A stretch of DNA of 58,461 nucleotides, taken from a virus. The translations under genes and the position numbers were made by a program. The notes under the pieces are model-generated. The model did no database searches and was not told the origin of the DNA. It worked only from the letters and a program-made list of their open reading frames with translations. The stretch lies in IMG/VR virus record IMGVR_UViG_3300033417_000009; one strand, given 5' to 3'. Shown here one piece after another: positions 1-58,461 of the stretch; the stretch's first letter is position 1; each line of letters opens with the position of its first letter.

Positions 1-127
1 CAACCACCCCGCCGCTCATACTAGAAAGCTGCTTCTGGATGTCCTGGCCCAGCTTTTTCTCCCGCACACGGTAAGCGAGCACACAAAGCTGTCGTGCCTC
101 TTTGTAGTATTTGAGGGCCAAGTCTGC
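1..127. repeat. 127-bp terminal direct repeat, identical to 58335..58461 (circular-closure overlap of the contig)
   Basis: Read directly: caaccaccccgccgctcatactagaaagc...gagggccaagtctgc occurs at both ends with no mismatch. Confidence 0.97.
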
Positions 128-321: not shown

Positions 322-3300
322 CTACGGAGTGTTAGTTGGCGTGCTGGTAGGTGTGCGTGTGGGTGTGACGCTGCGAGTTTTGGTTGGGGTCTCGGTACGT
401 GTGGGCGTCCACAGTGGGCCGATGGTGTTCAACACCACCTGCGCAGGAACCACTACGTGAGTCGTGGGCGTAGGCGTGTTCTGGCTCGTTTGCACCACAG
501 GCACAGCACTCGGTGATGCGAGCATGGTAGGTGTCGGGCTGCCGCCCGGCCCGAATGTTGGTGTTGGAGCTGTCATGGACTCCCGCAGTACACGCACGAA
601 AAAGGTCGCGGCGGGCAAGAAAGTGTTGGCGCCTACTGCGCACACACTCACGAGCACCTGGTCAGGTCCACTTACCATCGCTTGCCACAACAACGGGGCG
701 GATAGGAATTGCTGTGGAGATGTGATTGCCACCATGCCAAGCTCAGCACCCACCACCGTGGTTGTGTAGTTAGCGCACTCGCCGCTGTTGACGAACCGAA
801 AGTCGGTGGTCACAGTTCCGGTAAGTGGCCTCAGTTCCCATTCAATGTTTGGTATCGTGCCAGAAACGTTGCCGCCTAACCTCGTGCCTATGGTAAGTGC
901 CTCCCCATCAGCATCCGGCTCGCTAAGCTGTTTGATCTTGTTGCCGCCACCATCCGCATCGGCGGTAAGGGTGAAATCGCGTACTGGCCCGGGCGTCAAC
1001 ACCACCTCGTCCCAACCCCAAGGCATCGTCAACAATAAGTCGTATTCATCAAAGCCGGTTAATGTGATCGCAGAAAGCGCAGGCGTGGGCGCTGGCGTCG
1101 GCTTGCCCAGCAACAGGCCCAGGTCCACCGGCCCGGCCAACGGCAACTGCACCACACTTGCTGCTCCGTTTTCCACGCTCACATGCACCACCGTACCGCC
1201 GATGCCCTGTGCCCCGGCGGGCAGGAAACCATCCGCAGTCGTCACCCACGTGCGTATAGATGGGCGCATGAGACAGTTTTCTGTGGTGGCTTGCGTGTAA
1301 CGGATCTCAACACTCACGCGCCTATTTGCGGCTGCTAACCCCGCGCTACCATAAACACGCCCAGTGAGCGCCACCGGGTTGCACGCAGGTGTGAAAGTCG
1401 GCGATGGGGCGGTTACTACCGGAGTTGGTGTTTCGGTAGGTACTGGCGTCAAAGTTACCGTTGGTGTTGGGGTGTCAATCTGGAACTGAAAACGAGCCAC
1501 GCCGATGCTTTTGTCGTCGAGGTCAGTGGGAAGCAACGTGGCTTCCCACGTGAACACAAGATCTCCCTGCCGCGCTGAGATCACCGAGCCCCAAGCGTGT
1601 TGTCCGCACACCTGGTCAGGTACATCGTGTTCCCCACCTTTCGGCGTACCATCTTCGTCAAACCTGCGGAACACTTGCCGCTGCAACCCGGTATCGTCTG
1701 TCGTCCATGTGATTACAAAGTCACTGCTTTGCTCGTGAGTAACCGGGTGTACAGCGATATTGATGGCAGTCGTAGGAATAGCAAGTTCAAAAAAAGTCTG
1801 AGTGCCAGTCTGTACTATGTTGGCCAATGTGACATCGCCTACCAATGTTCCCGATACCGATATTCGTTGAAAACCAACGCCAATCCCGTCAGCGTCAGCT
1901 ATGGTTGCAACCAATACCACCGTGCCATCTGCTGCTACTGACACGCCACCTACGTTGTTAATACCCGCAGGTGCTATTGGTTGTAGAACTTGGGTTCCAT
2001 CTGCGTTGTATCGGTACACTACAACGCTTGCCAATGTGTTGCTGGACCACGCGACTGCGCAGTCACCGGCATCGTTACAAGAAATCTTTGGTAGTGTTGT
2101 ATCTACGTCCAACACTTGCGTTGGGCTAAGCGGTACACCGGCCCATGTATACCGTCTGACTGCAACGTCCGCACCTTCGTTATCTAACCACGCAACAATG
2201 AACCCGTTTACATGTGCTGCTACAACAGGGAATTGTTCTTTGTGCGCGCCCCCGCTGTTCACAAAGAAATCATCTTGCACCAGCACACCTGCCGCGTCCC
2301 AAATCTTGCAAAACACGTTCGTGCGTACAAGGCGCGGGGACTGCCAACAAATAACTGTACGCCCAGCAGCGTCCTGCGCTACCGCCGGTCTGCGGTTATC
2401 GTACACAACATTACTTGATACGATCGTTTCACCTGTGATGGCAGCTAGAACTGCATCGAAGTCACGAACATACACAGTGTCGGGTGACGGCGACACGCTT
2501 GTCCACACTACTTTTGACGTACCAGACGCCGTGGTTGCTGCTGCACAATGCTTCTGGGCGCCAGCAACAGTCTCGTTCACCAGCACATCACTCTTTACCT
2601 GCCCGGGGCGGGGTGTGCGTGTTGGTAGGCACGGTGTGCTTGTTGGTGTAGGCGTGTCGAATTGGAATTGAATGGCTTCAATAGACGAATGCTTCGCGCC
2701 CCATTGGTCCTGCGTTTGCACACTTTCCCACAAGAAAGTGTAGAGACTGTCATCGGTACAGGCGAGAACCACATTACGCTGGAAACCATCCCGCGTGCTA
2801 TTCACCGCCCACGGCCCTTCCGCCAACGTGCCATCCACCCTGAACTTTGCGGCCCACACGCTGGACTCGCTGCCATCGCCAAGGTCAGCGCCAGGGTTCA
2901 GAGTGTCGTCTAGAAAATCAGACCACGTCACGACGAAGTCACCGGAAATTTCGGCGCACACAGCCGGTGCACTCCGCTCTGCCACCACATCCGGCACTCC
3001 GCTGTCTTCAATGACCTCCAATTCTGCAAGAAGCCCTGTACCTGTATTGGTCATGCGTCGTGCTTGTACATTCTGGTTCACACTGTCATCTGTTTCCCAC
3101 ACGATCACAAAACGGTTCCCATCCTCATGGCTAACCGATGGCGAGAACTGACTGTCTTGCGCCGTTCCCACGTCGAACAAAGGGGTTGTGATGGCAGGTG
3201 CGCTATTGAGCGCGAGGCCCCGTACGGCTTGGATTACGCTCAGCGACGGGTTTCCGGAAATCAACATCGCATCATCATCTACACCCGCTTGCGCGTCCAC

Positions 3301-6189
3301 GCCCGGCTCAATTTCAAGGTTGGCAGTGTCGCGCAACACAACATCGCCTGACGTTGGTCCAGCCCCGTCAAATGCCCGTGCCAGGATACGGCTCGGGTAA
3401 GCTGCGGTGTTGACCGCCTCTTCCCACACCACCACGAAATCGTCCCTGTCTTGCGGCCACGAAATTATTGAGGGGGATACATCAAAGTTCGTGTTATCTC
3501 CCGGCACAGTGAACTCGGCGCCAGCGGTAGTCACGCTCGTCACCCGACGACCCACCACATCAAACAGCGTTGGGCCGGTGTCCTGAGACCACACCACCAC
3601 AAACTCACCGCTTGTGGAGGTAGCGGCGACCCGGTGCTTTTCCCGCAACACAAACTTTACAGAAGCCCCAGTAGCATTGATGGTAAATTGGGCGTCACTT
3701 GGCGTAGCGGCCAAGTCCAGCTCTCTCCCTACAATGTTCGCGCTCCCGCCACCGGCCTCATCCCAAATCGCAAAAAGCAGGTCGTTATCTTTGCTGTAAG
3801 CAACCGCTGGGTGTGACCGTGACGTGCCGGCGTCAGACCCCGTGCTCACCTGCCGCTCGTCACCCACTTGGTGCGGCCGAGGGGTAAATGTGGGCAGGCT
3901 GGTAACTGACGCAGTGGCAGTCCCCGTGTTTGTGCGCGTGGGCGTTTGCGTTGGTGTGTCTGTGGGGGTGCTCGAAGGTGTGCCTGTACTCGTGGGTGTA
4001 TCCGTGGGAGTTTCTGTTGGCGTTTGTGACGGGCCGGGCGTGGGGGTGCCAGTGATAGTAGGGGTGTTCGTAATCGTTTCTGTTGGCGTAACAGTAGGAG
4101 TTGCGGTCGGGGTAGCGGTTAGCGTAAACGTCGGCGTTGCCGTTGGCTCTGCCGCCACCAACAACAACTGCGGCCTCTCCCCGACAACGCTCCATTCTTT
4201 TGAGCGAAAAAGCGCGTTGTTGTAAAACTGATAGTCCTGTGCCGCAGCTTTCCTCACAAGCCATCCTTCATTCGCTTCTGCGCCGCTAACGAAGTCTTTC
4301 ACGTCATCGGTTACATCAAACTCGAAGAAGCCGAACGGAGTAAATGCATTCATCAAACTCACCGTGGTCGCTACAGAGTCTGCGTGCCCCGGCGTGTTAA
4401 GCCCGTTCCACGTTGCAGGACATGCCGTCGTCGGGCATCTCCACGTGGCCTCTGCTTCAACCCACGGCGTGATGATTCGGTATACTTCCTGCTGTATGTC
4501 GTCGGCGCCCCAAAACTTGTTATTAGTTTTGTAGTAGTACAACCGTAGTTTGGCCTGCTGAATAACGCGCCCACCAGTTTCTACTGCTTGCATCTCAGCC
4601 GTGTTGAAGCGAATAGCGATGCGGCGAAATTGCCAGATCTGTAGGAAATCCTTGGTGCTAAAATTCCTGTTTAAGTAAAAGGAGTTGAAAAAAGTGTCAG
4701 CTTCCGCGGTCAATGTTGTGTTCACAGCGCCAACCGGGGTTTGCGTTGCCGTGACTGTAATCGTGTTCTCTGGCGTGGGCGTGTTAACGGTTGCTGTCAC
4801 CGTTGCCGTGAAAGAAATGGTAGGGGTTGCTGTAGGTGTTCGCGTGGGCGTCTCAGTAGGTGTTTGCGTCGGGGTACGGGTGGGTGTTGGCGTTGGCGTT
4901 GGTGTTGCGGTGGCTACAGTATCTGGGCACCCGGCGAACACGACGCCCCTCGCTTCGCTGGTTGTTACCACGTTAGCAGCAGCGGCGTGCGTTAGCTCAC
5001 CTGTGAAAGGGGAGCTGACCAGTGAAGCGGTGCCTCCAGCCAACCCAACTGCGCCAATGTCGGAAGAACTCACAATCGTACGTCTTGTAACCTGACTCGT
5101 ACCGTCAGACCCGTAGCTAACTTCCCCGCCGATCACGTCGATCTGGTCAAGCCCGCTCATCAACACCACAGCACGGTTCGGCAACGCGCTCATCGCCAGC
5201 GACCAGGCTGTTCCAGTTATGGCTTCTTGCGAACCGCTCGCCGTATCATGTGCGCTAGGCCCGGTGGCTGCCAAAGGCCACACTTGCCCATCTGTGTCCA
5301 AGCCAAAACCCACCAGCACCCCGTTGTAACTACGGAGCGTGCCATTGCTACGGGCGTGGCGTACGGTCACTGTGTAGGCGCCGGGCGTCGCCAACGTGAG
5401 CGCCCCCACCAACGTTATCATTTCAGTTTGCGGTACAGCGGCCAACCGTACCTGAGTTGCTGCTACGGTCACGCCGTTGATTTGAAGGTCATAATCCGCA
5501 GTCAGCGGGGCACCACTATCTATCGTGGCTGACAACGACGCCATGGCTACCACCCGCGTGTCCGCTTCCGTCGTAGTCACGGAAGCAGAAAAACCGCTGA
5601 TGGCTGTGAGCAAGGGGCTAGTGGTTGTGACCCCGGTACCGTCAAGGTCGTCATACCCATGAGGTAAGGTCAGCGTTGTATCATAGCTCGTCAGCGGGAA
5701 AGCCACCACGTCTATGTTGTCGGTGGACAGCGTGCCCCCTGATGTCGCGTGCTGGAACTTGAATGTGCGTGCCCCGTCACTTTCTAGCCCAGGCCACAGC
5801 GAGACAACCACGCCGTTGCTGTAATCGCCGGTGCCTGGTATGTACCGCTCCAATTGCCGGGTCATCGCTGCGGTGGTTTCGCCGCCGCTGGCGCCATCCA
5901 ACGTAACCGCCCACGCCCCAGTTTCCCCGCTCCCCGCAGTGAGAGCCCCGTCGAAGGACGCAAAAGCCAACACCGAGTCTCCTACCTGCGGCACGGCTAC
6001 CGTTACTGAGTAACCGGTGTCTTCAAGCGTTGCGCTGGTGGTAGTATCGACTGTGTCAGTAGACAGGCGTTGGATATCGAGACAACTCGCCAGTGGGGTG
6101 GGCGTCTGCGCATACACGCTCAACCGAGCCATCAGCAAGATTGCCGTAACCAGAAGCGTTTTCGCGCTCATCGCCCGCATCACACTCAT
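322..6189 (-). CDS. Giant secreted multi-domain protein (1955 aa): Sec signal peptide, Pro-Thr linkers, DNRLRE-like domain, two arrays of FVVxW...RRF propeller-like repeats, C-terminal fibre-like module
   Basis: Uninterrupted ORF. The N-terminus [30 protein letters not shown] resembles a Sec signal, and its ATG overlaps the upstream stop (ATGA). There are at least 6 (TPx)n linkers and about 13 repeats such as [14 protein letters not shown] and [15 protein letters not shown]. The motif [21 protein letters not shown] is also present. Confidence 0.85.
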
Positions 6190-9100
6190 CGTACTACCAC
6201 ATAGTAAGTCATCATGGGCGCTGTCGTGGCCCGAATGGCGCACAGTCGCACCGCTACTTGCTCAATTGGTAGAGAAGCGGGCAGGACAAAACCGTCGTAC
6301 CACACGTCCGGCACAAAACCAGCCGGTGAAATGAAAACGGCCATGCCCTGCCGCGCACCGAGTACATCAAGGACCTCAAACACGCACTCGCCGGTAGCCA
6401 GCGCTCCAGTGTTGAAAGTTACCGTTCCCAACAACAGAGGTTCCGCCAACGTCGGGTACGGCCACACACCAGCGAGCACGCCGGTAGCCGCCTGGCCGTA
6501 GGGGATAATGTCGCCGTCTTCAGTAGCAGCGCCAATATCAGTGATCTGGTGACCGCTGGCAATGCCATCTTGCGCCAAGGTGAAGTCGGTTACGGCCCCG
6601 CGCACCAATGTTACCCTGTCAGTGCTCTGGGTTGCGGTCAGGGTGTACTGACCCACGCCGGGCACCACCGCGAGCGCTGTAACGGCTTCTGCCAACGCCG
6701 GGATCTGCGCCACGCCTACCAGCGTGTGCGCCGAGACCGTGGCTCCTTCGTTTTTGAGAGGAGGAATCAACACTCGCATTGGTTGCTGTGCCCCTTCGAG
6801 CGAGAGCTGCACTACGCTCCCGGCTACGGTTGTCGCCGTGACGGGCAGGAAGCCGTAGTCATCAAGAGTCACGGTTTTGGATGACACGTGGATCAAACAC
6901 CCATTCACCAATTGCTCTTCAGTGGTGTCAATGTGGAAACGCCTGCCCGCAGCAAGTTGCCCGTCCACGTCCACCACCTGCCCTGTCAGCCGCACCGACA
7001 CGCAAGAGCTGGTAGGGACAATGTCATCTTGCGTAAGGTCGCGTCTCGGGGTCACGCTTGCCGTAGCGGTAGCCGTAATCGTAGGGGAAGGCGTGTTCAA
7101 AACTACTCCGACTACCGCCACAGCCGTGGGTGAGGGCGCTGGCGTGTGTGTCAACGTAGGTGTGCTTGTAGGTGTGCTTGTAGGCGTGTTCGTTGGAGTC
7201 CTGGTAAAGCCAAATTGAGGAACCTGTGGCACAGCGACCAGCGACGGCGTTGGCGTCGGCGTGTTCAGCGATACCATCGGGTCCGCCTGTATTGAAGGTG
7301 TCGGCGTAAACGTAGCAACGGAAAGCTGTGAGAGTTGGATGCCGGTGCCCATCACCGCGTTATCGCAAGTCACGTCCATCGTCGAAATCTGCCGTACCGG
7401 GTCCACAGTTGGGAAATCGTCTTTTTGCACTGTGAATTGCAGGTAACAGTGTGCCGGTGTGTCGGCCGGGATTGTGAGTGTGGAATCGGGGGTGAATGTA
7501 ATCACGCCCGCTGCTTCCACAGCGGACCACGTGACCCCACAGGTAGTGGTGATCGAATCTTGGTAACTGATAGAATCGTTGTTGCCGGTGCAACCGCCCG
7601 GGGGGTCAGTAGTCTTGCAGTTGAGCGTGAAGGTAGCTTGCGTCAGGTCGCCCTCGGTCCCCCCTGTTACGGCGGCTAACCCGAACGTAAGCCGCACATC
7701 ATCAGTCTCCCCCACGGTATCAACCGCCGGTTGGTTCTCGTAGGTAATCGCCAGCACGACGTTACAAGTCCCGAGCGCGGACGTTGAAGTAGGCGTGGCG
7801 CTTGGCGTGCTCGTGGGTGTGTCAGTGGGTGTGCTTGTGGGGGTAGCTGTCGGCGTTGAAGTGGGCGTGTCAGTAGGCGTGCTTGTAGCCGTCCCAGTAG
7901 GGGTATCGGTGGGCGTGCTCGTGGGCGTGCTCGTGGGAGGTGACGCTGTTGGGGTGTTCAAAGACACTTGCGGCGGCACCGCGACGCTTGGTGTGGGTGT
8001 GCTCGTGTTTAAAATCGCCTGCACCACGACCGCCGCCGTGGCGGTCCTTGTAGGAGAAGAAGTTGGCGTGATTGATGGCCCTGCCACCTGCACTATCGGC
8101 ACCGCTGTTGCTGTCGGTGTAGGAGATTGCGTGTTCAAGATTACCGCTACCACCGGCTGCGGGGTTGCTGTGTTAGAAGGGGTAGGTGTGTTCAACACGG
8201 CTTGCATCACCGACTGTGGAGTCATCGTGTTCGTAGGTGTGTTGGTAGGAGTGTCCGTAGGCGTGCTGGTTGGTGTTGCAGTTGGCGTGTTCGTAGGGGT
8301 ATTTGTTGACGTGCCCGTTGGTGTAACTGTAGGAGTGATCGTTGGCGTGTTCGTAGGGGTTTGTGTCGGCGTACTCGTCGCGGCGGGGGTCAACGTGGCC
8401 GTCGGTGCCTCGAACGCCGCCTCGAACTGCACCGCGCTGGCGCGCAATGTGTCGCACGCGCGGCGCACGCCAAAGTCAGACGCATCGAGATTCACGCAGG
8501 TCCACGCTGCCGCTGTGTCAGGGTCAACCGTGTAAAGCGTGAACTTGTCTGCGTAAGATGTGTTCGTTGAGATCGCAGCCGCAGCGACGGAATCAATCAC
8601 ACTAGCGGTACACGAGCCGCTGCTGCCTGTGGTCCGCGACGAGATCAGATTCAGGCCAGCGTGGATCGGCTCCGAGATCCCCAGCGTGGCGCACGAGTCG
8701 TGCGAGAAGATGCAGTTCACCGTGCTGCCGGTTGTGATGTATGTCGTGTCGTCGTCGGTCGGAGGACCCTCGTCCAGGCACAGGTGCTCCGATGCCTCGT
8801 CGCAGCCGCTAGTGGTCCACCCCATATCACAGGTGCCGGTGCCGGTGGTTGGTAAGGGCATGATTCGAACGTTGCCGGGGTACTCAGTGCCGGTGTGTAC
8901 ATCAACGTCGTCGAAGTTGATGCTGGCCGTCACGTTCGCGAGGGTGTTGCCGACATCGACGCGGGAGTAGTTGACGCTAAAAGATGTGGTCGCGCAGGCG
9001 TCGATTGCCTCGATGAGGTATCCGTTCGCGTCGTACAGATTCAGGTAGACGAGCCCCGTGCCGAAGAAGTCGCGGACCGCCCGGAACTCCACCCTGTACC

Positions 9101-9560
9101 ACATATCGAGGGCCAGCGCTGTCGATGTGGTAGCGCACGCACTCCACCCGCTAGCGTACGTGCCGATGTCGAGCGTGCGGTCCGTGTTCAGAGCAATACC
9201 GTGCCCATTAAGGTTGTCCGTCACGACATACTGGTAGATGACCGTATCGTTCGCGTCGGGAGCAGTCGTGATGCGGAGTCGAAAGGAGGAGCGCAGGTGA
9301 TTATCGTTGTAGCCAGTCTGCTGCACCCGGCACTGCGCGGCGGACGGATTCCACTGGTAGCACCGCCCAGTGAAGCAATCGGTCGCGGTGCTGGTGCAAG
9401 CTCCCGAGACGGTGCCGTTTTGTACGCCTGCGCCGTTGGCCTCGAACGACATGTGAAACAGGTGCGTCGCGTGGGCAGGACTTGCCACTACCCCTAAAAA
9501 GATGGCGCGAACCAGCACACGGCTAATCCACGCCATCTTATCTCGGGGGAAAGTCGCCAT
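6186..9560 (-). CDS. Giant secreted protein (1124 aa): signal peptide, LamG/ConA-like N-domain, long Pro-Thr/LNTPTP linkers, Cys-rich Ig-like domain, C-terminal fibre-like module
   Basis: Uninterrupted ORF with signal-like MAWISRVLVRAIFLGVVASPAHA/T (an alternative start is at 9536). PT linkers span roughly 7100-7260 and 7790-8400. The last ~272 aa are colinear with residues near the C-terminus of the 322..6189 protein. Confidence 0.85.
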   Translation of the reverse strand: MATFPRDKMAWISRVLVRAIFLGVVASPAHATHLFHMSFEANGAGVQNGTVSGACTSTATDCFTGRCYQWNPSAAQCRVQQTGYNDNHLRSSFRLRITTAPDANDTVIYQYVVTDNLNGHGIALNTDRTLDIGTYASGWSACATTSTALALDMWYRVEFRAVRDFFGTGLVYLNLYDANGYLIEAIDACATTSFSVNYSRVDVGNTLANVTASINFDDVDVHTGTEYPGNVRIMPLPTTGTGTCDMGWTTSGCDEASEHLCLDEGPPTDDDTTYITTGSTVNCIFSHDSCATLGISEPIHAGLNLISSRTTGSSGSCTASVIDSVAAAAISTNTSYADKFTLYTVDPDTAAAWTCVNLDASDFGVRRACDTLRASAVQFEAAFEAPTATLTPAATSTPTQTPTNTPTITPTVTPTGTSTNTPTNTPTATPTSTPTDTPTNTPTNTMTPQSVMQAVLNTPTPSNTATPQPVVAVILNTQSPTPTATAVPIVQVAGPSITPTSSPTRTATAAVVVQAILNTSTPTPSVAVPPQVSLNTPTASPPTSTPTSTPTDTPTGTATSTPTDTPTSTPTATPTSTPTDTPTSTPSATPTSTSALGTCNVVLAITYENQPAVDTVGETDDVRLTFGLAAVTGGTEGDLTQATFTLNCKTTDPPGGCTGNNDSISYQDSITTTCGVTWSAVEAAGVITFTPDSTLTIPADTPAHCYLQFTVQKDDFPTVDPVRQISTMDVTCDNAVMGTGIQLSQLSVATFTPTPSIQADPMVSLNTPTPTPSLVAVPQVPQFGFTRTPTNTPTSTPTSTPTLTHTPAPSPTAVAVVGVVLNTPSPTITATATASVTPRRDLTQDDIVPTSSCVSVRLTGQVVDVDGQLAAGRRFHIDTTEEQLVNGCLIHVSSKTVTLDDYGFLPVTATTVAGSVVQLSLEGAQQPMRVLIPPLKNEGATVSAHTLVGVAQIPALAEAVTALAVVPGVGQYTLTATQSTDRVTLVRGAVTDFTLAQDGIASGHQITDIGAATEDGDIIPYGQAATGVLAGVWPYPTLAEPLLLGTVTFNTGALATGECVFEVLDVLGARQGMAVFISPAGFVPDVWYDGFVLPASLPIEQVAVRLCAIRATTAPMMTYYVVVR

Positions 9561-20670: not shown

Positions 20671-20919
20671 ATGTTACACGTCGCCACACCACAACCGATG
20701 AAAATGCCCATGCCCAAAAAAGAGTTCCCCCAGGCGCGCCGTAGCTGCATCACAGTCCCCCCGGCTGAAGCTACGGCGCCCCCTTCCACCACGCACCTCC
20801 ACGTGCGCATCCCACTCGGGCTAATGCGCACGCTGGAGCTAGTTGCGGCAGCGGATGATCGTACCGTGAGCTACGTCGTGCGGAGGGCTCTTGAGGAGCA
20901 GTTCACAGATCCAGCTTGA
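20671..20919 (+). CDS. Ribbon-helix-helix (CopG/Arc-like) DNA-binding protein (start uncertain, 20671 or 20698)
   Basis: The C-terminal HLHVRIPLGLMRTLELVAAADDRTVSYVVRRALEEQF fits the RHH beta-alpha-alpha pattern. A weak TTGACA-N17-TTACAC promoter lies at 20651-20679. Confidence 0.55.
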   Translation: MLHVATPQPMKMPMPKKEFPQARRSCITVPPAEATAPPSTTHLHVRIPLGLMRTLELVAAADDRTVSYVVRRALEEQFTDPA

Positions 20920-20957
20920 ACTACCTAACCCACAACCCACAAAGAGGAGAATCAGCC

Positions 20958-21587
20958 ATGCCCACTGCCACGAAACGTAAGCCCCCCGTCACCACGCCCG
21001 CCGACGCCAAGGCCGATGCCCAAGCCGAAGTCAAGGCGCTGGCTACTCAAGTAGCTCGCTTTCCAACCATTGAGTTCATCGAAGACGCTCAAGGGTTGGA
21101 AGTTGCGCACCGCCAACAGCTTCAGCTTGCAGACATCAAGAAGCAGCTTAAGGCGAAGAAAGACGGCATCTTGAAGCTGCTCAAGTTGGTCGAGAAAGAA
21201 GTCAAGGAACTCTTTGCGGAGCCTGAGCGCAGGGTGGAAGCCGCTCTCGCCGCCACCAAGGTTGCCATCGCCAGTTACAACCTTTGGCTTCGGGAGCAAC
21301 AGGAAGCCGAGCGTGCGAAACTTGCCAAAAAAATCGAGAGTGGCAAACTCACCGAGGCCCAAGCCGGCGCCCGCGTGGCCCGGCTCTCTGAGGAGTTGGG
21401 CGCCGCCCACGTGTCTGCCCGCAAACATGCAGTCATGCGAATCGTAGACCCTTCAAAAGTCCATGATCGCTATTGGGTAATAGATGAAGTGGCGCTCCGG
21501 GCCGATGCCCTCGCTGCCCACAAAAACGAGCGCCCTCTCCCCACGGGAGTGGAAGTCGTTGAAGAAGAAATTATCGTCAACCGTTAG
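20958..21587 (+). CDS. Coiled-coil protein of the recombination module (209 aa)
   Basis: SD agaggag. The sequence has long heptad-like Lys/Glu/Ala helices. No family was recognised. Confidence 0.6.
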   Translation: MPTATKRKPPVTTPADAKADAQAEVKALATQVARFPTIEFIEDAQGLEVAHRQQLQLADIKKQLKAKKDGILKLLKLVEKEVKELFAEPERRVEAALAATKVAIASYNLWLREQQEAERAKLAKKIESGKLTEAQAGARVARLSEELGAAHVSARKHAVMRIVDPSKVHDRYWVIDEVALRADALAAHKNERPLPTGVEVVEEEIIVNR

Positions 21588-21615
21588 ACCCGCTCGCAGG
21601 GAGGAAAAACGTCAC

Positions 21616-22680
21616 ATGAGTTATCTCGACACCCCTGACACCGGGCGTCTCTCTTACGACAACGTTCGAGCCATCCTTGTTGCATGGCTCGATCGCCACA
21701 AGCGCACCGATTTCCCGTGGCGCGTTCACCCGGATGACGTGGAAGTACCCATCGTGAATACTCTCTACACCACGCCACATGATGAATGTCTCTGCGGTCA
21801 CGCCCTCAGTAGACATACTCGGCGCGAGGGCACTGAGCCTGAGGAGCGCCCGTGCGACATGTGCGTCTGCGCCACCTACCGCAACTGCATCAAGCATGTG
21901 GGTAAGTTGGATTTGCTGGGCCAACCTACCGGGGCCAGCGGCAGCTATTGCCCGGTAGACCACAAGACCACTTACAAAATCGACGCCAAATTCGTCCGGC
22001 AGTTTGATATATCGAGCCAGCTTTCCGGCTACCTGTGGGCAGCGGGTAAGTTATGCGACACGCCCGGCCACCAGCTCGTGGCGTTCATCAACGCCATTGA
22101 GCTATCCCAGCTTCCCACATCCGACCGACGTTGCTCCAAACACGGCGTACAGTACAACGAGTGCTCGCTAGAACACATGAACTGTCAAGTAATTGGCCCG
22201 ATCGAGCGCACGGCCTCGCAGATCGAACGGTGGGAATCGGATGCAATCACATTCGGCATCAGATTCCATAAACTGTGGTCACACGCCCGCCGCTTCGGCG
22301 CCGACGCCATGCCCGATGTACCCATGGAAGGCACATTCAACAACTCCTGCGGTTGGTGTGAGTTTCGGGAGTGGTGTCTATTTTCTCGTTCCACGCTACA
22401 AACAGAGCGCTTCACGCACTCCCCGTGGGAACCATGGGTCCATGCATCTTTGAAGAAGCCCAAATTCACCACGCTCTACATCGACAACACCATTATGCAA
22501 TCCGTGGCCAATTGCTCCACCCTGACCGTTGCTCGCCACGGCTTGCACATGACAAACCCTGAGCGCCAGGGTCCCCTCAACGCAGGAACCGCAGTTCACG
22601 CAGCCCTCGAAGTTTGGTTCAAAGGCGATTCTGTGAAAAAGGCCCTGGCAGCTTTCGATGAAGCCTACATCCCATTTTAG
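21616..22680 (+). CDS. PD-(D/E)xK nuclease, Cas4/RecB-like with Fe-S cysteines; motif order appears circularly permuted
   Basis: SD gggaggaaaaa. Motifs in order: VEVPI (E), GKLDLLG (motif II), PVDHKTT (motif III), SQLSGYLWA (QxxxY), CGWCEFREWC. The normally N-terminal segment IMQSVANCSTL...NAGTAVHAALEVWFKG comes only after those. Confidence 0.7.
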   Translation: MSYLDTPDTGRLSYDNVRAILVAWLDRHKRTDFPWRVHPDDVEVPIVNTLYTTPHDECLCGHALSRHTRREGTEPEERPCDMCVCATYRNCIKHVGKLDLLGQPTGASGSYCPVDHKTTYKIDAKFVRQFDISSQLSGYLWAAGKLCDTPGHQLVAFINAIELSQLPTSDRRCSKHGVQYNECSLEHMNCQVIGPIERTASQIERWESDAITFGIRFHKLWSHARRFGADAMPDVPMEGTFNNSCGWCEFREWCLFSRSTLQTERFTHSPWEPWVHASLKKPKFTTLYIDNTIMQSVANCSTLTVARHGLHMTNPERQGPLNAGTAVHAALEVWFKGDSVKKALAAFDEAYIPF

Positions 22681-22704
22681 TCGGGAGAAAAGTCAACCCA
22701 ACTA

Positions 22705-22734
22705 TTGACATCACGCCACATGGTTGTGTAGAAA
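22705..22734 (+). promoter_or_regulatory. Sigma70-like promoter TTGACA-N18-TAGAAA
   Basis: Read directly. It is preceded by aaaaGTCAAC (22692-22697). The ATG of the next gene is only 13 nt past the -10, with no SD. Confidence 0.45.
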
Positions 22735-22747
22735 ACAACACTCGCAA

Positions 22748-22981
22748 ATGACCACTGCCCAATCAGCTTACGTGTTCACTGTCCCGCACAATCGCATCGC
22801 AGTGTTGTGCAATCGCCATTGTGTCGTGGAACATGGCCCTTACGTAGTCCGCAATTTCATCGGCGACCACATCGACACCCTGCGTCAACACTTGCGCGTG
22901 CTCAAGAAGCGCACCCCCACAAAGAAGCGCACTTCCACAACGAAGGGAACCCACAATGTCCAAGAGGCTAACCCGGGCTGA
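22748..22981 (+). CDS. Small hypothetical protein (77 aa)
   Basis: MTTAQSAYVFTVPHNRIAVLCNRHCVVEHGPYVVRNF... with a basic C-terminus. It would have a near-leaderless start after the 22705 promoter. Confidence 0.5.
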   Translation: MTTAQSAYVFTVPHNRIAVLCNRHCVVEHGPYVVRNFIGDHIDTLRQHLRVLKKRTPTKKRTSTTKGTHNVQEANPG

Positions 22982-23816
22982 CGCCCAGCGCCCCCGTAAA
23001 CCGGACCCAGACCTGCTGTTCGAGATCCACTACTACCACGACCCAGACCCGGAGAAGCCAGATGGCTTCGCGCTCTTCCGCGATGAGCAAAAACAGTTCG
23101 ATCCCACCGCGTGGGCTACATGGATTGGCGACAGTGTAACTGCCGCTGTCGTTGCCGCGCGCCTTGAACAACAATTCGTGATTCAGCCCGAAGTAAAACA
23201 ACCCATGAAGTGGCATGCCGGGGCCACAGACCAACTCGAAATGCAATTGGTCCGCCGGGTGGCCTCGTACCCGTGCAACGTCGTTCTCACCGCGCACATC
23301 GCCGATGCCTACGTAGAACAGCCAACGCCGCAGGGCGTCCGCCGTTCCGACCGACGCGTACCCATGGCCGAAACCAGTGAAGGGCGCCCTATCCTCTTGC
23401 AAGGCATTTCTGCTCCTGGGCGCCTGGCCCGAGACAAAGGTCTCGTGTCACAATACGCCGAAGTCTACCGCGCTTACGTGGTGATGGGCAAGAAAGGCCC
23501 GGAGTGGTACTTGCAAACAGAACCGGACGGCGATTGGATTGTGATGTCACAGTTGCTCGCTCCTGATGGCGCACGCCCGGACTATAAAGAGCTGTGGGAC
23601 AACTACAAGGGGCCAAAGACCCGCCCTCCAGTCCACGCTATCATCTACGGCCACCCCGGCACCAAGAAGAGCACCTTTGCCGCCACCTTCCCAACCCCTA
23701 CCTACGTTGCCGCTTTTGATGCCTATGGCAAAGACATGCCCTACACACGTCTCGGTGAAGTAGAAGAAGACGAAAGTGACCTTGGCGTACCCATCAAGAG
23801 AGTGTACCGTGCCTAG
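22956..23816 (+). CDS. AAA_24/Sak4-like RecA-fold ATPase; Walker A lies at the C-terminus (apparent circular permutation)
   Basis: ATWIGDSVTA (Walker B-like) and CNVVLTAHIAD (the nvi..aH motif) lie in the N-terminal half. VHAIIYGHPGTKKSTFAATFPTPTYVAAFDAYG (the P-loop segment that normally opens AAA_24 proteins) lies at residues ~228-260 of 286. Confidence 0.6.
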   Translation: MSKRLTRADAQRPRKPDPDLLFEIHYYHDPDPEKPDGFALFRDEQKQFDPTAWATWIGDSVTAAVVAARLEQQFVIQPEVKQPMKWHAGATDQLEMQLVRRVASYPCNVVLTAHIADAYVEQPTPQGVRRSDRRVPMAETSEGRPILLQGISAPGRLARDKGLVSQYAEVYRAYVVMGKKGPEWYLQTEPDGDWIVMSQLLAPDGARPDYKELWDNYKGPKTRPPVHAIIYGHPGTKKSTFAATFPTPTYVAAFDAYGKDMPYTRLGEVEEDESDLGVPIKRVYRA

Positions 23817-23822
23817 CCACAC

Positions 23823-23993
23823 ATGCTCATTTATCTTACCATCATCTTCGCGGTGCTCTGTGCCGCGCTCTGGATTATCGCCCTCTTACTTTCCCTCGCG
23901 ATTTACGCAGATCGCACTGGGGAATGTGAACGGAAATTAGGGACACCCGAGCCCCGGAAAGGAGAACTCGCAAATGGCAAAAGCAACCGATGA
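23823..23993 (+). CDS. Small membrane protein (56 aa)
   Basis: MLIYLTIIFAVLCAALWIIALLLSLAIYA, then a charged tail. It is below the ORF-track length cut-off and was read by hand. Confidence 0.4.
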   Translation: MLIYLTIIFAVLCAALWIIALLLSLAIYADRTGECERKLGTPEPRKGELANGKSNR

Positions 23994-24168
23994 AGTGTTG
24001 GCCCGCCTGCAAGCGGAAGAAGCTGATATTGATCGCGCCAGTCTGGCGCTGGTCAAAGACAGTGCTCTTGCAAAGCCACGCCGTCGTCGTGAGAATGATG
24101 ACGCGGTCGAGCGCGTGGCCCGGCCCTTGCGCCGCCCACTTCGCCCGACCGAAGAAGAGGATGGTTAG
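23974..24168 (+). CDS. Small charged hypothetical protein (64 aa)
   Basis: SD aaaggag precedes the ATG. Sequence begins MAKATDEVLARLQAEEADIDRASL... Confidence 0.5.
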   Translation: MAKATDEVLARLQAEEADIDRASLALVKDSALAKPRRRRENDDAVERVARPLRRPLRPTEEEDG

Positions 24169-24264
24169 GGCAAAACTCACAAAGTGCGCCTGCCTAGCAC
24201 CCACCATGACCGCTGACTACTGGCAGTGAAATAGTTGGCACCCAACAAGGAAAGGAAACACGAT

Positions 24265-24942
24265 ATGGCAGCGAAAAAGGGAGCCGGTTTCGACTGGGAT
24301 TCAATCCCAACTTCCTCGATGTACCCCAACGGGTACTACAACCTGGAAGTGGTGAAGACCGAAGTCGGCGAGAGTCGCAACGGCTACAAACAGTACACAT
24401 TGGAACACCAGATCACGGAGCCCAAGGAATACGCTGGGCGTCTCTACTGGGAGCGTTTCACAATCGGCAACGACGCCGACCCGGAGGCTGAAGACCCGGA
24501 CACCTGGAAGCAGTCCGTCGGCGCCCAACGTCTGAAGAAGTACCTTCTGGCTGCGAAATTCAAGACCAACGGCCAACACCCCGATGAGTTGATCCCGGAG
24601 CTGGAAGGTGTGGAAGTGTGTGCTCACCTTGCCATCAAGATCCAGACGAAAGGTGATTACAAGGGGCAGGAGCAGCAAACTTCCAACTTCTACGCCCTCG
24701 GTGAAAGGGAGCCGCAGTTGTTGGCGGACTCCGACAAGCCCAACGCCCGTCGCGTCCCGCGCAAGCGACACGAAGTGGATGAGGAAGAAGCCCCGGCTCC
24801 GACCCGTCGGCGTACTCGGGTTGCTGAGGAGGAGGAAGAGGAGGAGCCCGTGCCTCGACGACGACGACGGGCAGCGGAAGAGGAAGAGGAGGAGGAAGAG
24901 GAGGAGCCCGTGTCACGCCGAGCCCGGCGCAAGCGTTCTTAA
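24265..24942 (+). CDS. ssDNA-binding protein, DUF669 / T7 gp2.5-like, with alternating acidic/basic C-terminal tail
   Basis: GFDWDSIPTSSMYPNGYYNLEVVKTEV..GYKQYTLEHQITEPKEYAGRLYWERFTIG matches the DUF669 opening. The tail is EEEEEEEPVPRRRRRAAEEEEEEEEEEPVSRRARRKRS. Confidence 0.65.
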   Translation: MAAKKGAGFDWDSIPTSSMYPNGYYNLEVVKTEVGESRNGYKQYTLEHQITEPKEYAGRLYWERFTIGNDADPEAEDPDTWKQSVGAQRLKKYLLAAKFKTNGQHPDELIPELEGVEVCAHLAIKIQTKGDYKGQEQQTSNFYALGEREPQLLADSDKPNARRVPRKRHEVDEEEAPAPTRRRTRVAEEEEEEEPVPRRRRRAAEEEEEEEEEEPVSRRARRKRS

Positions 24943-58241: not shown

Positions 58242-58461
58242 CTTCCTTGCCCTCCTTTGGGGTTACATTCCGTGGTACTTGTGGGGGCGCGGGCTGCCCC
58301 ATCTTGTACGTGCGCGTCCGTTCCTGGATTGCTGCAACCACCCCGCCGCTCATACTAGAAAGCTGCTTCTGGATGTCCTGGCCCAGCTTTTTCTCCCGCA
58401 CACGGTAAGCGAGCACACAAAGCTGTCGTGCCTCTTTGTAGTATTTGAGGGCCAAGTCTGC
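58219..58461 (-). CDS. 3-prime part of the junction-spanning 133-aa gene (see 1..286)
   Basis: The frame is continuous with 286..128 once the duplicated 127 bp is collapsed. The track's TTG start at 58455 is an artefact of the contig end. Confidence 0.6.
   Translation of the reverse strand, partial: ADLALKYYKEARQLCVLAYRVREKKLGQDIQKQLSSMSGGVVAAIQERTRTYKMGQPAPPQVPRNVTPKEGKEDGERDAS
58335..58461. repeat. 127-bp terminal direct repeat, identical to 1..127
   Basis: Read directly. Confidence 0.97.

Follow-up and report, generated by a model that had tools for sequence, protein, structure and literature searches.

A circularly permuted Sak4-like RecA-type ATPase in a metagenomic tailed phage, and the recurrence of permutation in its family

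The viral sequence IMGVR_UViG_3300033417_000009 (IMG/VR; 58,461 nucleotides, the whole of which is called the window here) contains a recombination gene that raises the question of whether a RecA-like ATPase has truly moved its ATP-binding loop from the N-terminus to the C-terminus, and, if so, by which route and how often. An earlier reading of the letters alone had assigned the open reading frame (ORF) at 22956-23816 to the AAA_24/Sak4-like ATPases and placed its P-loop at the C-terminus; this sequence-only reading is borne out by profiles, canonical homologues, segment order, synteny and a single-domain structure model. The ORF is a true circular permutant and neither a fusion nor an artefact, and its product is probably a working, core-only ATPase of RecA type, circularly permuted and Sak4-like (AAA_24/PHROG 124), that most likely originated by duplication and trimming and would act in annealing. 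The elements of the gene (the query), with its four segments named A to D in their canonical order, are the following (aa, amino acids; HMM, hidden Markov model):

22956..23816, + strand: Sak4-like/AAA_24 ATPase ORF, 286 aa, complete, segment order B-C-D-A
About 8 nt 5' of the start of this ORF: Shine-Dalgarno-like AAGGGA
23013..23099, + strand: segment B, aa 20-48, LLFEIHYYHDPDPEKPDGFALFRDEQKQF, with the YYHD strand and a helix, placed by segment HMM and alignment
23112..23303, + strand: segment C, aa 53-116, running from the Walker B strand over two helices to the NVVLTAH strand (aa 108-114)
23118..23135, + strand: Walker B strand TWIGDS, aa 55-60
23403..23597, + strand: segment D, aa 150-214, with the APGRL motif, the LQT motif (Q187) and the PDYKELW helix
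23598..23630, + strand: D-A linker DNYKGPKTRPP, aa 215-225, 11 residues
23631..23807, + strand: segment A, aa 226-284, with beta1, Walker A, a helix, beta2 and a beta-hairpin
23649..23675, + strand: Walker A loop GHPGTKKST, aa 232-240, the sole Walker A in the ORF

Segment B, which opens the query protein, lies downstream of the P-loop module in canonical relatives, while segment D is the C-terminal end of the canonical proteins and segment A is the ortholog of their aa 3-66, so that the D-A linker of the query bridges the canonical C-terminus and the canonical N-terminus. The motifs on which the sequence-only reading relied lie within 2-4 residues of where it had put them (ATWIGDSVTA, aa 54-63; CNVVLTAHIAD, aa 107-117; VHAIIYGHPGTKKSTFAATFPTPTYVAAFDAYGKD, aa 226-260).

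The permutation is directly visible in pairwise alignments, in which aa 20-214 of the query correspond to aa 71-272 of canonical relatives (54-57% identity) and aa 223-284 correspond to their aa 3-66 (62-73% identity). Specifically, BLASTP against the canonical protein P0005 returns two high-scoring segment pairs (HSPs) in swapped order (20-214 to 71-272, 54% identity, E 5e-77; 223-284 to 3-66, 62.5% identity, E 6e-22), an arrangement far beyond chance, and against P0003 the second (P-loop) block is 72.6% identical. A search of 5.8 billion proteins yields 25 homologues, most of which show 44-57% identity over only about 69% of the query; in those partially covering sequences an N-terminal P-loop is followed directly by ...EIHYYHDPDPEKP..., that is, by the N-terminus of the query, and once the query is rotated all 25 sequences align end to end. 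Moreover, segment HMMs match A, B, C and D exactly once each, in the order B (20-48), C (53-116), D (150-214) and A (226-284). At the genome level, tblastx compares the window with L001, a phage contig of 58 kb that is syntenic and holds a canonical gene. The order is the same throughout the stretch between the UvrD-like helicase and the DNA polymerase, and the sole non-colinear block pairs window 23610-23807 with L001 5995-6198, located there upstream of the BCD block. The swapped HSPs, the end-to-end alignment of the rotated chain and the single-copy segments thus leave no place for the three objections that the sequence-only reading had raised against itself: there is no overlooked Walker A near the N-terminus, as the HMM of segment A finds a single match; no foreign domain supplies the P-loop piece at the C-terminus, given the identity of this piece to the canonical N-terminus; and two paralogues have not been fused, since no segment is duplicated.

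Linear profiles capture little of this chain. Pfam AAA_24 (PF13479) aligns only aa 228-252 to profile positions 5-29, at 23 bits, and PHROG 124 (Sak4-like single-stranded DNA (ssDNA) annealing protein) aligns only aa 224-256; a linear HMM cannot score a permuted chain. When aa 219-286 are placed by hand ahead of aa 1-218, the match to AAA_24 becomes colinear over positions 5-141, with a score that is barely higher (23.4 bits), and the whole clade of the query, canonical members included, is more divergent (18-23 bits). More distant members pass the AAA_24 threshold (P0015, 43.6 bits; P0017, 45.6 bits; the permuted P0014, 44.7 bits); P0015, which the query matches at E 3e-38, covers AAA_24 positions 2-190 of 195 and reaches 78.8 bits with PHROG 124, in the range of 71-79 bits obtained with this profile by canonical members of the subfamily. 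The query has no other Pfam match, as befits a core-only RecA domain of 286 aa, and an NCBIfam search returned no matches. Among the cultured phages of INPHARED, tblastn with the query finds no match, and P0036 matches only partially (29-31% identity over about half the length) the Sak4-like genes of Rosemountvirus-type and Vibrio (VpKK5-type) phages. The family is a metagenome-only branch of AAA_24/PHROG 124, the Sak4-like annealases.

Structure prediction, which the sequence-only reading had proposed as a check on a permuted RecA-like core, gives one confident domain. AlphaFold2 (AF2) with 41 permuted homologues returns a single compact domain with a predicted local distance difference test (pLDDT) of 89.7 and a predicted template modelling score (pTM) of 0.87, in which the C-terminal piece forms a strand (227-232), a helix (238-242) and a second strand (249-253), and the hairpin 268-284 packs next to the N-terminal strand 20-26. 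The D-A linker (215-225) is modelled at a pLDDT of about 97 and the P-loop is also confident; this run replaced a first one with a mixed alignment, in which the P-loop fell below a pLDDT of 50 because only three rows covered it. Foldseek against BFVD retrieves phage models annotated as 'AAA domain', AAA-ATPase and RecA-like recombinase (E 7e-6 to 1e-3, 180-218 columns), and a profile search of the PDB with the canonical homologues finds no match at E ≤0.5. The query chain is predicted to fold as a single RecA-like domain in which the ATP site is complete; to this site the C-terminal piece would contribute the Walker A K238 and the N-terminal piece the Walker B D59, E95 and Q187. A clade-specific, Arg-rich insertion of about 35 aa (DAYVEQPTPQGVRRSDRRVPMAETSEGRPILLQ; approximately 23304-23402, aa 117-149) separates the NVVLTAH strand from APGRL; it is modelled as a beta-hairpin whose tip drops below a pLDDT of 50 at 133-139, it is missing in half of the family, and it could be a putative DNA-binding loop.

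The permuted chains are under constraint. K238 and H114 are invariant across the 41 permuted homologues, and D59, E95, G155, Q187 and G232 are kept in at least 90% of them, indicating that function has been retained under purifying selection after permutation. An identical query protein is present on three contigs. The Walker A loop itself is variable, with TKK, AKK, TFK, SYK or SKK in clade-mates and GxGK[ST] in the wider family.

The same change of topology is found well beyond this gene. When 1.84 billion cluster representatives were searched exhaustively with phmmer, 266 family members emerged, 150 of them listed; a second search with another alignment, in which the top 8000 candidates were scored, added almost nothing. 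These 150, together with the homologues from the search of 5.8 billion proteins, make up 173 proteins, and segment HMMs classify the 165 that are near-full-length as follows:

Canonical A-B-C-D: 122 of 165
B-C-D-A: 39 of 165
C-D-A-B: 3 of 165 (P0024, P0093, P0111)
A split after the Walker A helix: 1 of 165 (P0088)

Permuted proteins thus account for 43 of the 165, about one quarter, with at least four cut sites. Even within the B-C-D-A class the cut varies: P0007, P0014, P0035, P0039 and the query are cut after the GVPIKRVY strand, and P0030, P0048, P0052, P0061, P0065 and P0101 about 20 residues earlier. On the neighbour-joining (NJ) tree, architecture takes 33 Fitch steps (31-42 with shuffled labels); when weak nodes are collapsed to soft polytomies, at least eight switches persist at a 70% bootstrap cut-off and at least six at 95%. 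Six sister pairs, each of one canonical and one permuted protein, are recovered at 87-100% bootstrap, and one trio holds all three architectures. In four of these pairs (P0042/P0045, P0052/P0104, P0101/P0125 and P0086/P0103) the A and BCD halves are both closest to the same canonical sister, and for each half of the query a canonical protein (P0003, 73%; P0005, 59%) is nearer than the best permuted one (P0007; 61% and 54%). Clades composed entirely of permuted proteins (91-100% bootstrap) indicate that permuted lineages persist and diversify, and the permuted clusters number more than 40, drawn from independent samples. This distribution requires that permutation arose at least six to eight separate times in the Sak4-like family.

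A further reading, which is unlikely, makes the subfamily a natural hotspot of circular permutation in which relocation of the termini is adaptive and not neutral; the independent permutation of the neighbouring exonuclease, described below, would then answer the same pressure. New termini might, for instance, hide a phage recombinase from host defence or satellite proteins able to recognise it, or might retune the contact with the cognate single-stranded DNA-binding protein (SSB); the targeting of phage recombinases by host defence or satellite proteins has been reported (PMC11846896).

Two standard models account for circular permutation, namely duplication with trimming and fission-fusion (PMC3320104). 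For this family the most likely origin is the former: the gene would be duplicated in tandem with in-frame fusion, and the P-loop segment of the first copy and the B-C-D part of the second copy would then be lost. The repetition of such events is probably due to the adjacency of the native termini. Some permuted proteins still carry the N-terminal residues of their canonical relatives: P0088 starts with MASEG and its canonical sister P0022 with MASEE, the P-loop of P0088 being at its extreme C-terminus instead; the N-terminus of P0086, VAKTKAKT, resembles that of its sister P0103, MAKVQTTTKTKT; and P0007 starts with MSTKRRLL, like the canonical P0004 (MTKRPLL). Likewise, D-A linkers resemble a canonical C-terminal tail joined to a canonical N-terminal head, as the query reads ...KTRPPVHA where P0005 ends in ...KTTR and begins with MKRPHVHA. 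The retained N-terminal residues of P0088 and P0086 and the composition of the linkers fit duplication-deletion better than fission-fusion.

P0088 is a complete ORF with a real stop (L007 1070-1846) whose chain starts just past the Walker A helix and ends in ...GESGSGKSTTLGTFAR before the stop codon, the ATP-binding loop forming the last 20 residues. Its initial 'ABCDA' call, which would have made it an intermediate, was rejected: the protein represents one more permuted form, in which segment A is split. The 445-aa P0054 was also discarded as an intermediate, its additional length being an unrelated N-terminal extension.

The gene stands in a recombination module in which a weak Gam-like ORF and then an exonuclease precede it, and two small ORFs and then a DUF669-like ORF follow it. 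The other parts of the module are:

20916-21587, + strand: Gam-like ORF, 223 aa, weak match to PHROG 253, Mu Gam-like end-protection (E 0.01)
21616..22680, + strand: Cas4-like PD-(D/E)XK exonuclease (P0174), 354 aa when read from its true start, M45 of the mechanical ORF
22681..22955, no strand: spacer between the exonuclease and the Sak4-like gene, 275 bp
24235..24942, + strand: DUF669-like putative SSB, two small ORFs downstream of the Sak4-like gene

The Gam-like ORF is conserved in locus L003 and absent from L001, and the DUF669-like ORF is syntenic in L001, L003 and L005. The matches of the latter are to DUF669 (E 0.0037; 17.8 bits, cut-off 21), PHROG 378 SSB (E 0.017) and PHROG 2300 (E 2.7e-9), and its C-terminal end consists of long Glu runs alternating with Arg-rich stretches (...EEEEEEEPVPRRRRRAAEEEEEEEEEEPVSRRARRKRS). 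The spacer is absent in L001, where the two genes overlap by 4 nt, and measures 49 bp in L003; it holds a TTGACA and overlapping small ORFs on both strands, and a relic of a P-loop copy is not detectable in it. The sequence-only reading had separated the two genes by a promoter and a 77-aa ORF, and neither is substantiated: no sigma-70-like promoter passes the scan of 22500-24300, and the small ORF has no detectable homologue in the related loci.

The neighbouring exonuclease had also been suspected of permutation, and the swapped HSPs agree. The mechanical ORF begins at 21484, 44 codons too far upstream, and the 354-aa product is on record as called here; it passes Pfam PDDEXK_1 (38.3 bits, cut-off 22) and carries CGWCEFREWC, a CxxCxxxxxC triad, together with the Cys of NCSTL. 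The NCSTL...GTAVHAALE segment occupies aa 289-354, after the Cys triad, and is N-terminal in canonical homologues. BLASTP of P0174 against the canonical P0186 aligns 8-272 to 76-299 and 289-354 to 3-69, in swapped order, and the canonical exonucleases (P0186, L005 673-1599 and L009 471-1394) have NSTL..C....G.A.H.AL at the N-terminus and the triad at the C-terminus. The move of the lone-Cys segment past the triad brings all four putative Fe-S ligands within about 60 residues. The permuted order occurs in 11 of the 12 exonuclease homologues retrieved, including those of L001, which has a canonical Sak4, and of L003, whose Sak4 is permuted; a 13,251-bp contig with P0003 and P0184 probably sets a permuted exonuclease beside a canonical Sak4, while L005 pairs a canonical exonuclease with a C-D-A-B Sak4. 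Loci with such mixed architectures imply that the two permutations are independent. Judged from these alignments and loci, the exonuclease is a true circular permutant whose event is older, clade-wide and independent of that of the Sak4-like gene. A shared duplication-and-truncation history or a rearranged module for both genes, which the sequence-only reading had put forward for testing, is not supported: the distribution among loci speaks against it, and the module is colinear with relatives except for the A segment.

By analogy with characterized relatives, the query protein is expected to bind ssDNA in an ATP-dependent manner and to anneal complementary strands. Sak4 of phage HK620 does both and is stimulated by the adjacent DUF669 SSB, and a DUF669-type SSB gene adjoins up to 80% of sak4 genes (PMC5928155). 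In the window, the Cas4-like exonuclease would expose ssDNA by 5' resection, the DUF669-type SSB would coat it and the Sak4-like ATPase would anneal complementary strands with ATP, and the module would in this way support both replication that depends on recombination and repair in a complete tailed phage of 58 kb. Window positions 1-127 and 58335-58461 are identical 127-bp ends and the window encodes a portal, a large terminase, an internal virion protein, a primase and PolA, which together indicate a circularly closed tailed-phage genome, probably complete at 58.3 kb, with the Sak4-like gene well inside it. Elsewhere in this genome, the ORFs 322-6243 (- strand, 1973 aa) and 6186-9560 (- strand, 1124 aa) both match weakly phrog_15511, of unknown function, and may be paralogous virion or tail proteins.

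Several observations weigh against a functional annealing ATPase derived by duplication and trimming. The query stays below the AAA_24 gathering cut-off (23 against 27 bits), as do its canonical clade-mates (18-20 bits); its Walker A departs from GxxxxGK[ST], a Lys replacing the Gly that normally precedes the catalytic Lys; the subfamily is metagenomic and known from sequence alone; and Foldseek, which depends on sequence order, finds no match in the PDB at E ≤0.001. The DUF669 assignment of 24235-24942 is weak, and the protein is devoid of the acidic-hydrophobic C-terminal tail that the HK620 SSB needs for Sak4 stimulation. The trees are NJ trees built from p-distances of rotated sequences, and they leave the exact placement of the query open. 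Lastly, neither tandem nor partly trimmed intermediates occur among the 173 proteins, and no relics of the deleted halves flank the query, since tblastn of the A and BCD pieces of nine proteins against 22600-22955 and 23817-24300 gives nothing below E 0.02; nor does a blastn self-comparison of 21401-24300 show anything below that value. The sub-threshold Pfam score, the atypical Walker A and the exclusive provenance from metagenome assemblies are what might be expected of an ORF that no longer functions, of a chimera made in assembly or of two truncated paralogues joined together, but this explanation is largely refuted and highly improbable: the identical protein recurs on three contigs, the more than 40 permuted clusters were sampled independently, the frame is intact within a circularly closed 58-kb genome, no segment is duplicated, the catalytic residues are conserved across the permuted lineages, and the model is a confident single domain.

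Duplication and trimming compete with two other histories of a genuine permutant. Through fission-fusion or cut-and-paste, separate A and BCD genes, or a translocated A, would be rejoined in reverse order without a tandem intermediate, which agrees with the lack of double-length or partly trimmed forms and of relics beside the window gene. That such splits can arise is suggested by L009 1613-2413 (P0161), where a canonical-order gene is divided at the B/C boundary by one in-frame TAG within segment B (…RVEYYHD, stop, NIDMPDAF…) into an 87-aa A-B ORF and a 162-aa C-D ORF; this is, however, a single in-frame stop for which a nonsense mutation, a sequencing error and a recoded codon are all candidate explanations, and the other apparent split, P0133 in L010, is an assembly gap of Ns. 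With the retained N-terminal residues and the appearance of the linkers on the side of duplication-deletion, fission-fusion is unlikely. Still less likely is one ancient permutation spread by recombination, with gene conversion from canonical relatives mimicking polyphyly. In its favour stand the mosaic nature of phage recombination modules and the tolerance of Sak4-type annealases for diverged substrates (PMC5928155), the linker motif KTRPP that the query and P0007 have in common, and the loose placement of the query within its clade; conversely, a single event has to contend with at least four distinct cut sites, with at least six switches left at the 95% bootstrap cut-off, with both halves of the query being nearer to canonical than to permuted proteins, and with the four pairs in which both halves share their nearest canonical sister, a pattern that argues against the spread of a single old permutation. 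Repeated duplication and trimming thus remains the preferred account.

Natural circular permutants are usually ancient and isolated, and their origin is argued from few cases. In this family, orthologues of both topologies share 50-70% identity, show several different cut sites and sit in otherwise syntenic phage genomes; they constitute a test series for the origin of permutation, for the terminus positions tolerated in a RecA-type core, and for the effects of the termini on ATPase activity, annealing and partner binding. Moreover, as linear HMMs see only the 25-residue P-loop of such proteins (23 bits, below the cut-off), the annotation of viral metagenomes systematically under-reports permuted recombinases, along with the Cas4-like nuclease permuted beside the query. 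In the library that was searched, no paper combines 'circular permutation' with Sak4 or describes permutation in this family, and a search for permuted RecA-like P-loop proteins found nothing relevant.

Compared with known systems, the biochemistry appears ordinary, and what is unusual is the frequency and recency of the topology change. Like Sak4 of HK620 and PA73, the query belongs to the class of proteins of about 250-290 aa with a single RecA-like core without extra domains and with Walker A and B, and its gene has an exonuclease gene and a putative DUF669-type SSB gene for neighbours in a recombination module; unlike them, it has a rotated core order with a C-terminal P-loop module. It also differs from the Sak4 proteins of cultured phages in its very distant sequence, in the replacement of the Gly before the Walker A Lys and in the insertion, of about 35 aa, that its clade carries after the NVVxxAH strand and ahead of APGRL. 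The neighbouring nuclease shares with Cas4 and AddB-type PD-(D/E)XK nucleases (4-Cys cluster) the CxxCxxxxxC triad and a fourth Cys, but its lone-Cys segment is C-terminal, after the triad. In the circularly permuted GTPases (cpGTPases; YlqF/RbgA, YjeQ/RsgA, YqeH), Walker A (G1) follows the other nucleotide-binding motifs, with fold and active site preserved; these proteins belong to the TRAFAC GTPase class and not to the RecA-like ASCE proteins, and their permutation is ancient and fixed in whole families, whereas in the query family the canonical and the permuted order interchange between orthologues sharing 50-60% identity. The DNA methyltransferases, the paradigm of permutation by duplication (Jeltsch 1999 and Bujnicki 2002, as cited in PMC3320104), likewise show recurrent natural permutation, in their case of a nucleotide-binding domain of Rossmann-like type encoded by mobile elements, which is explained by tandem duplication and trimming. 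They belong to another fold family and have another chemistry, and intermediates are documented for them, whereas none were found here; yet, relative to the methyltransferase permutations, the events of the query family are visible at a much shorter evolutionary distance.

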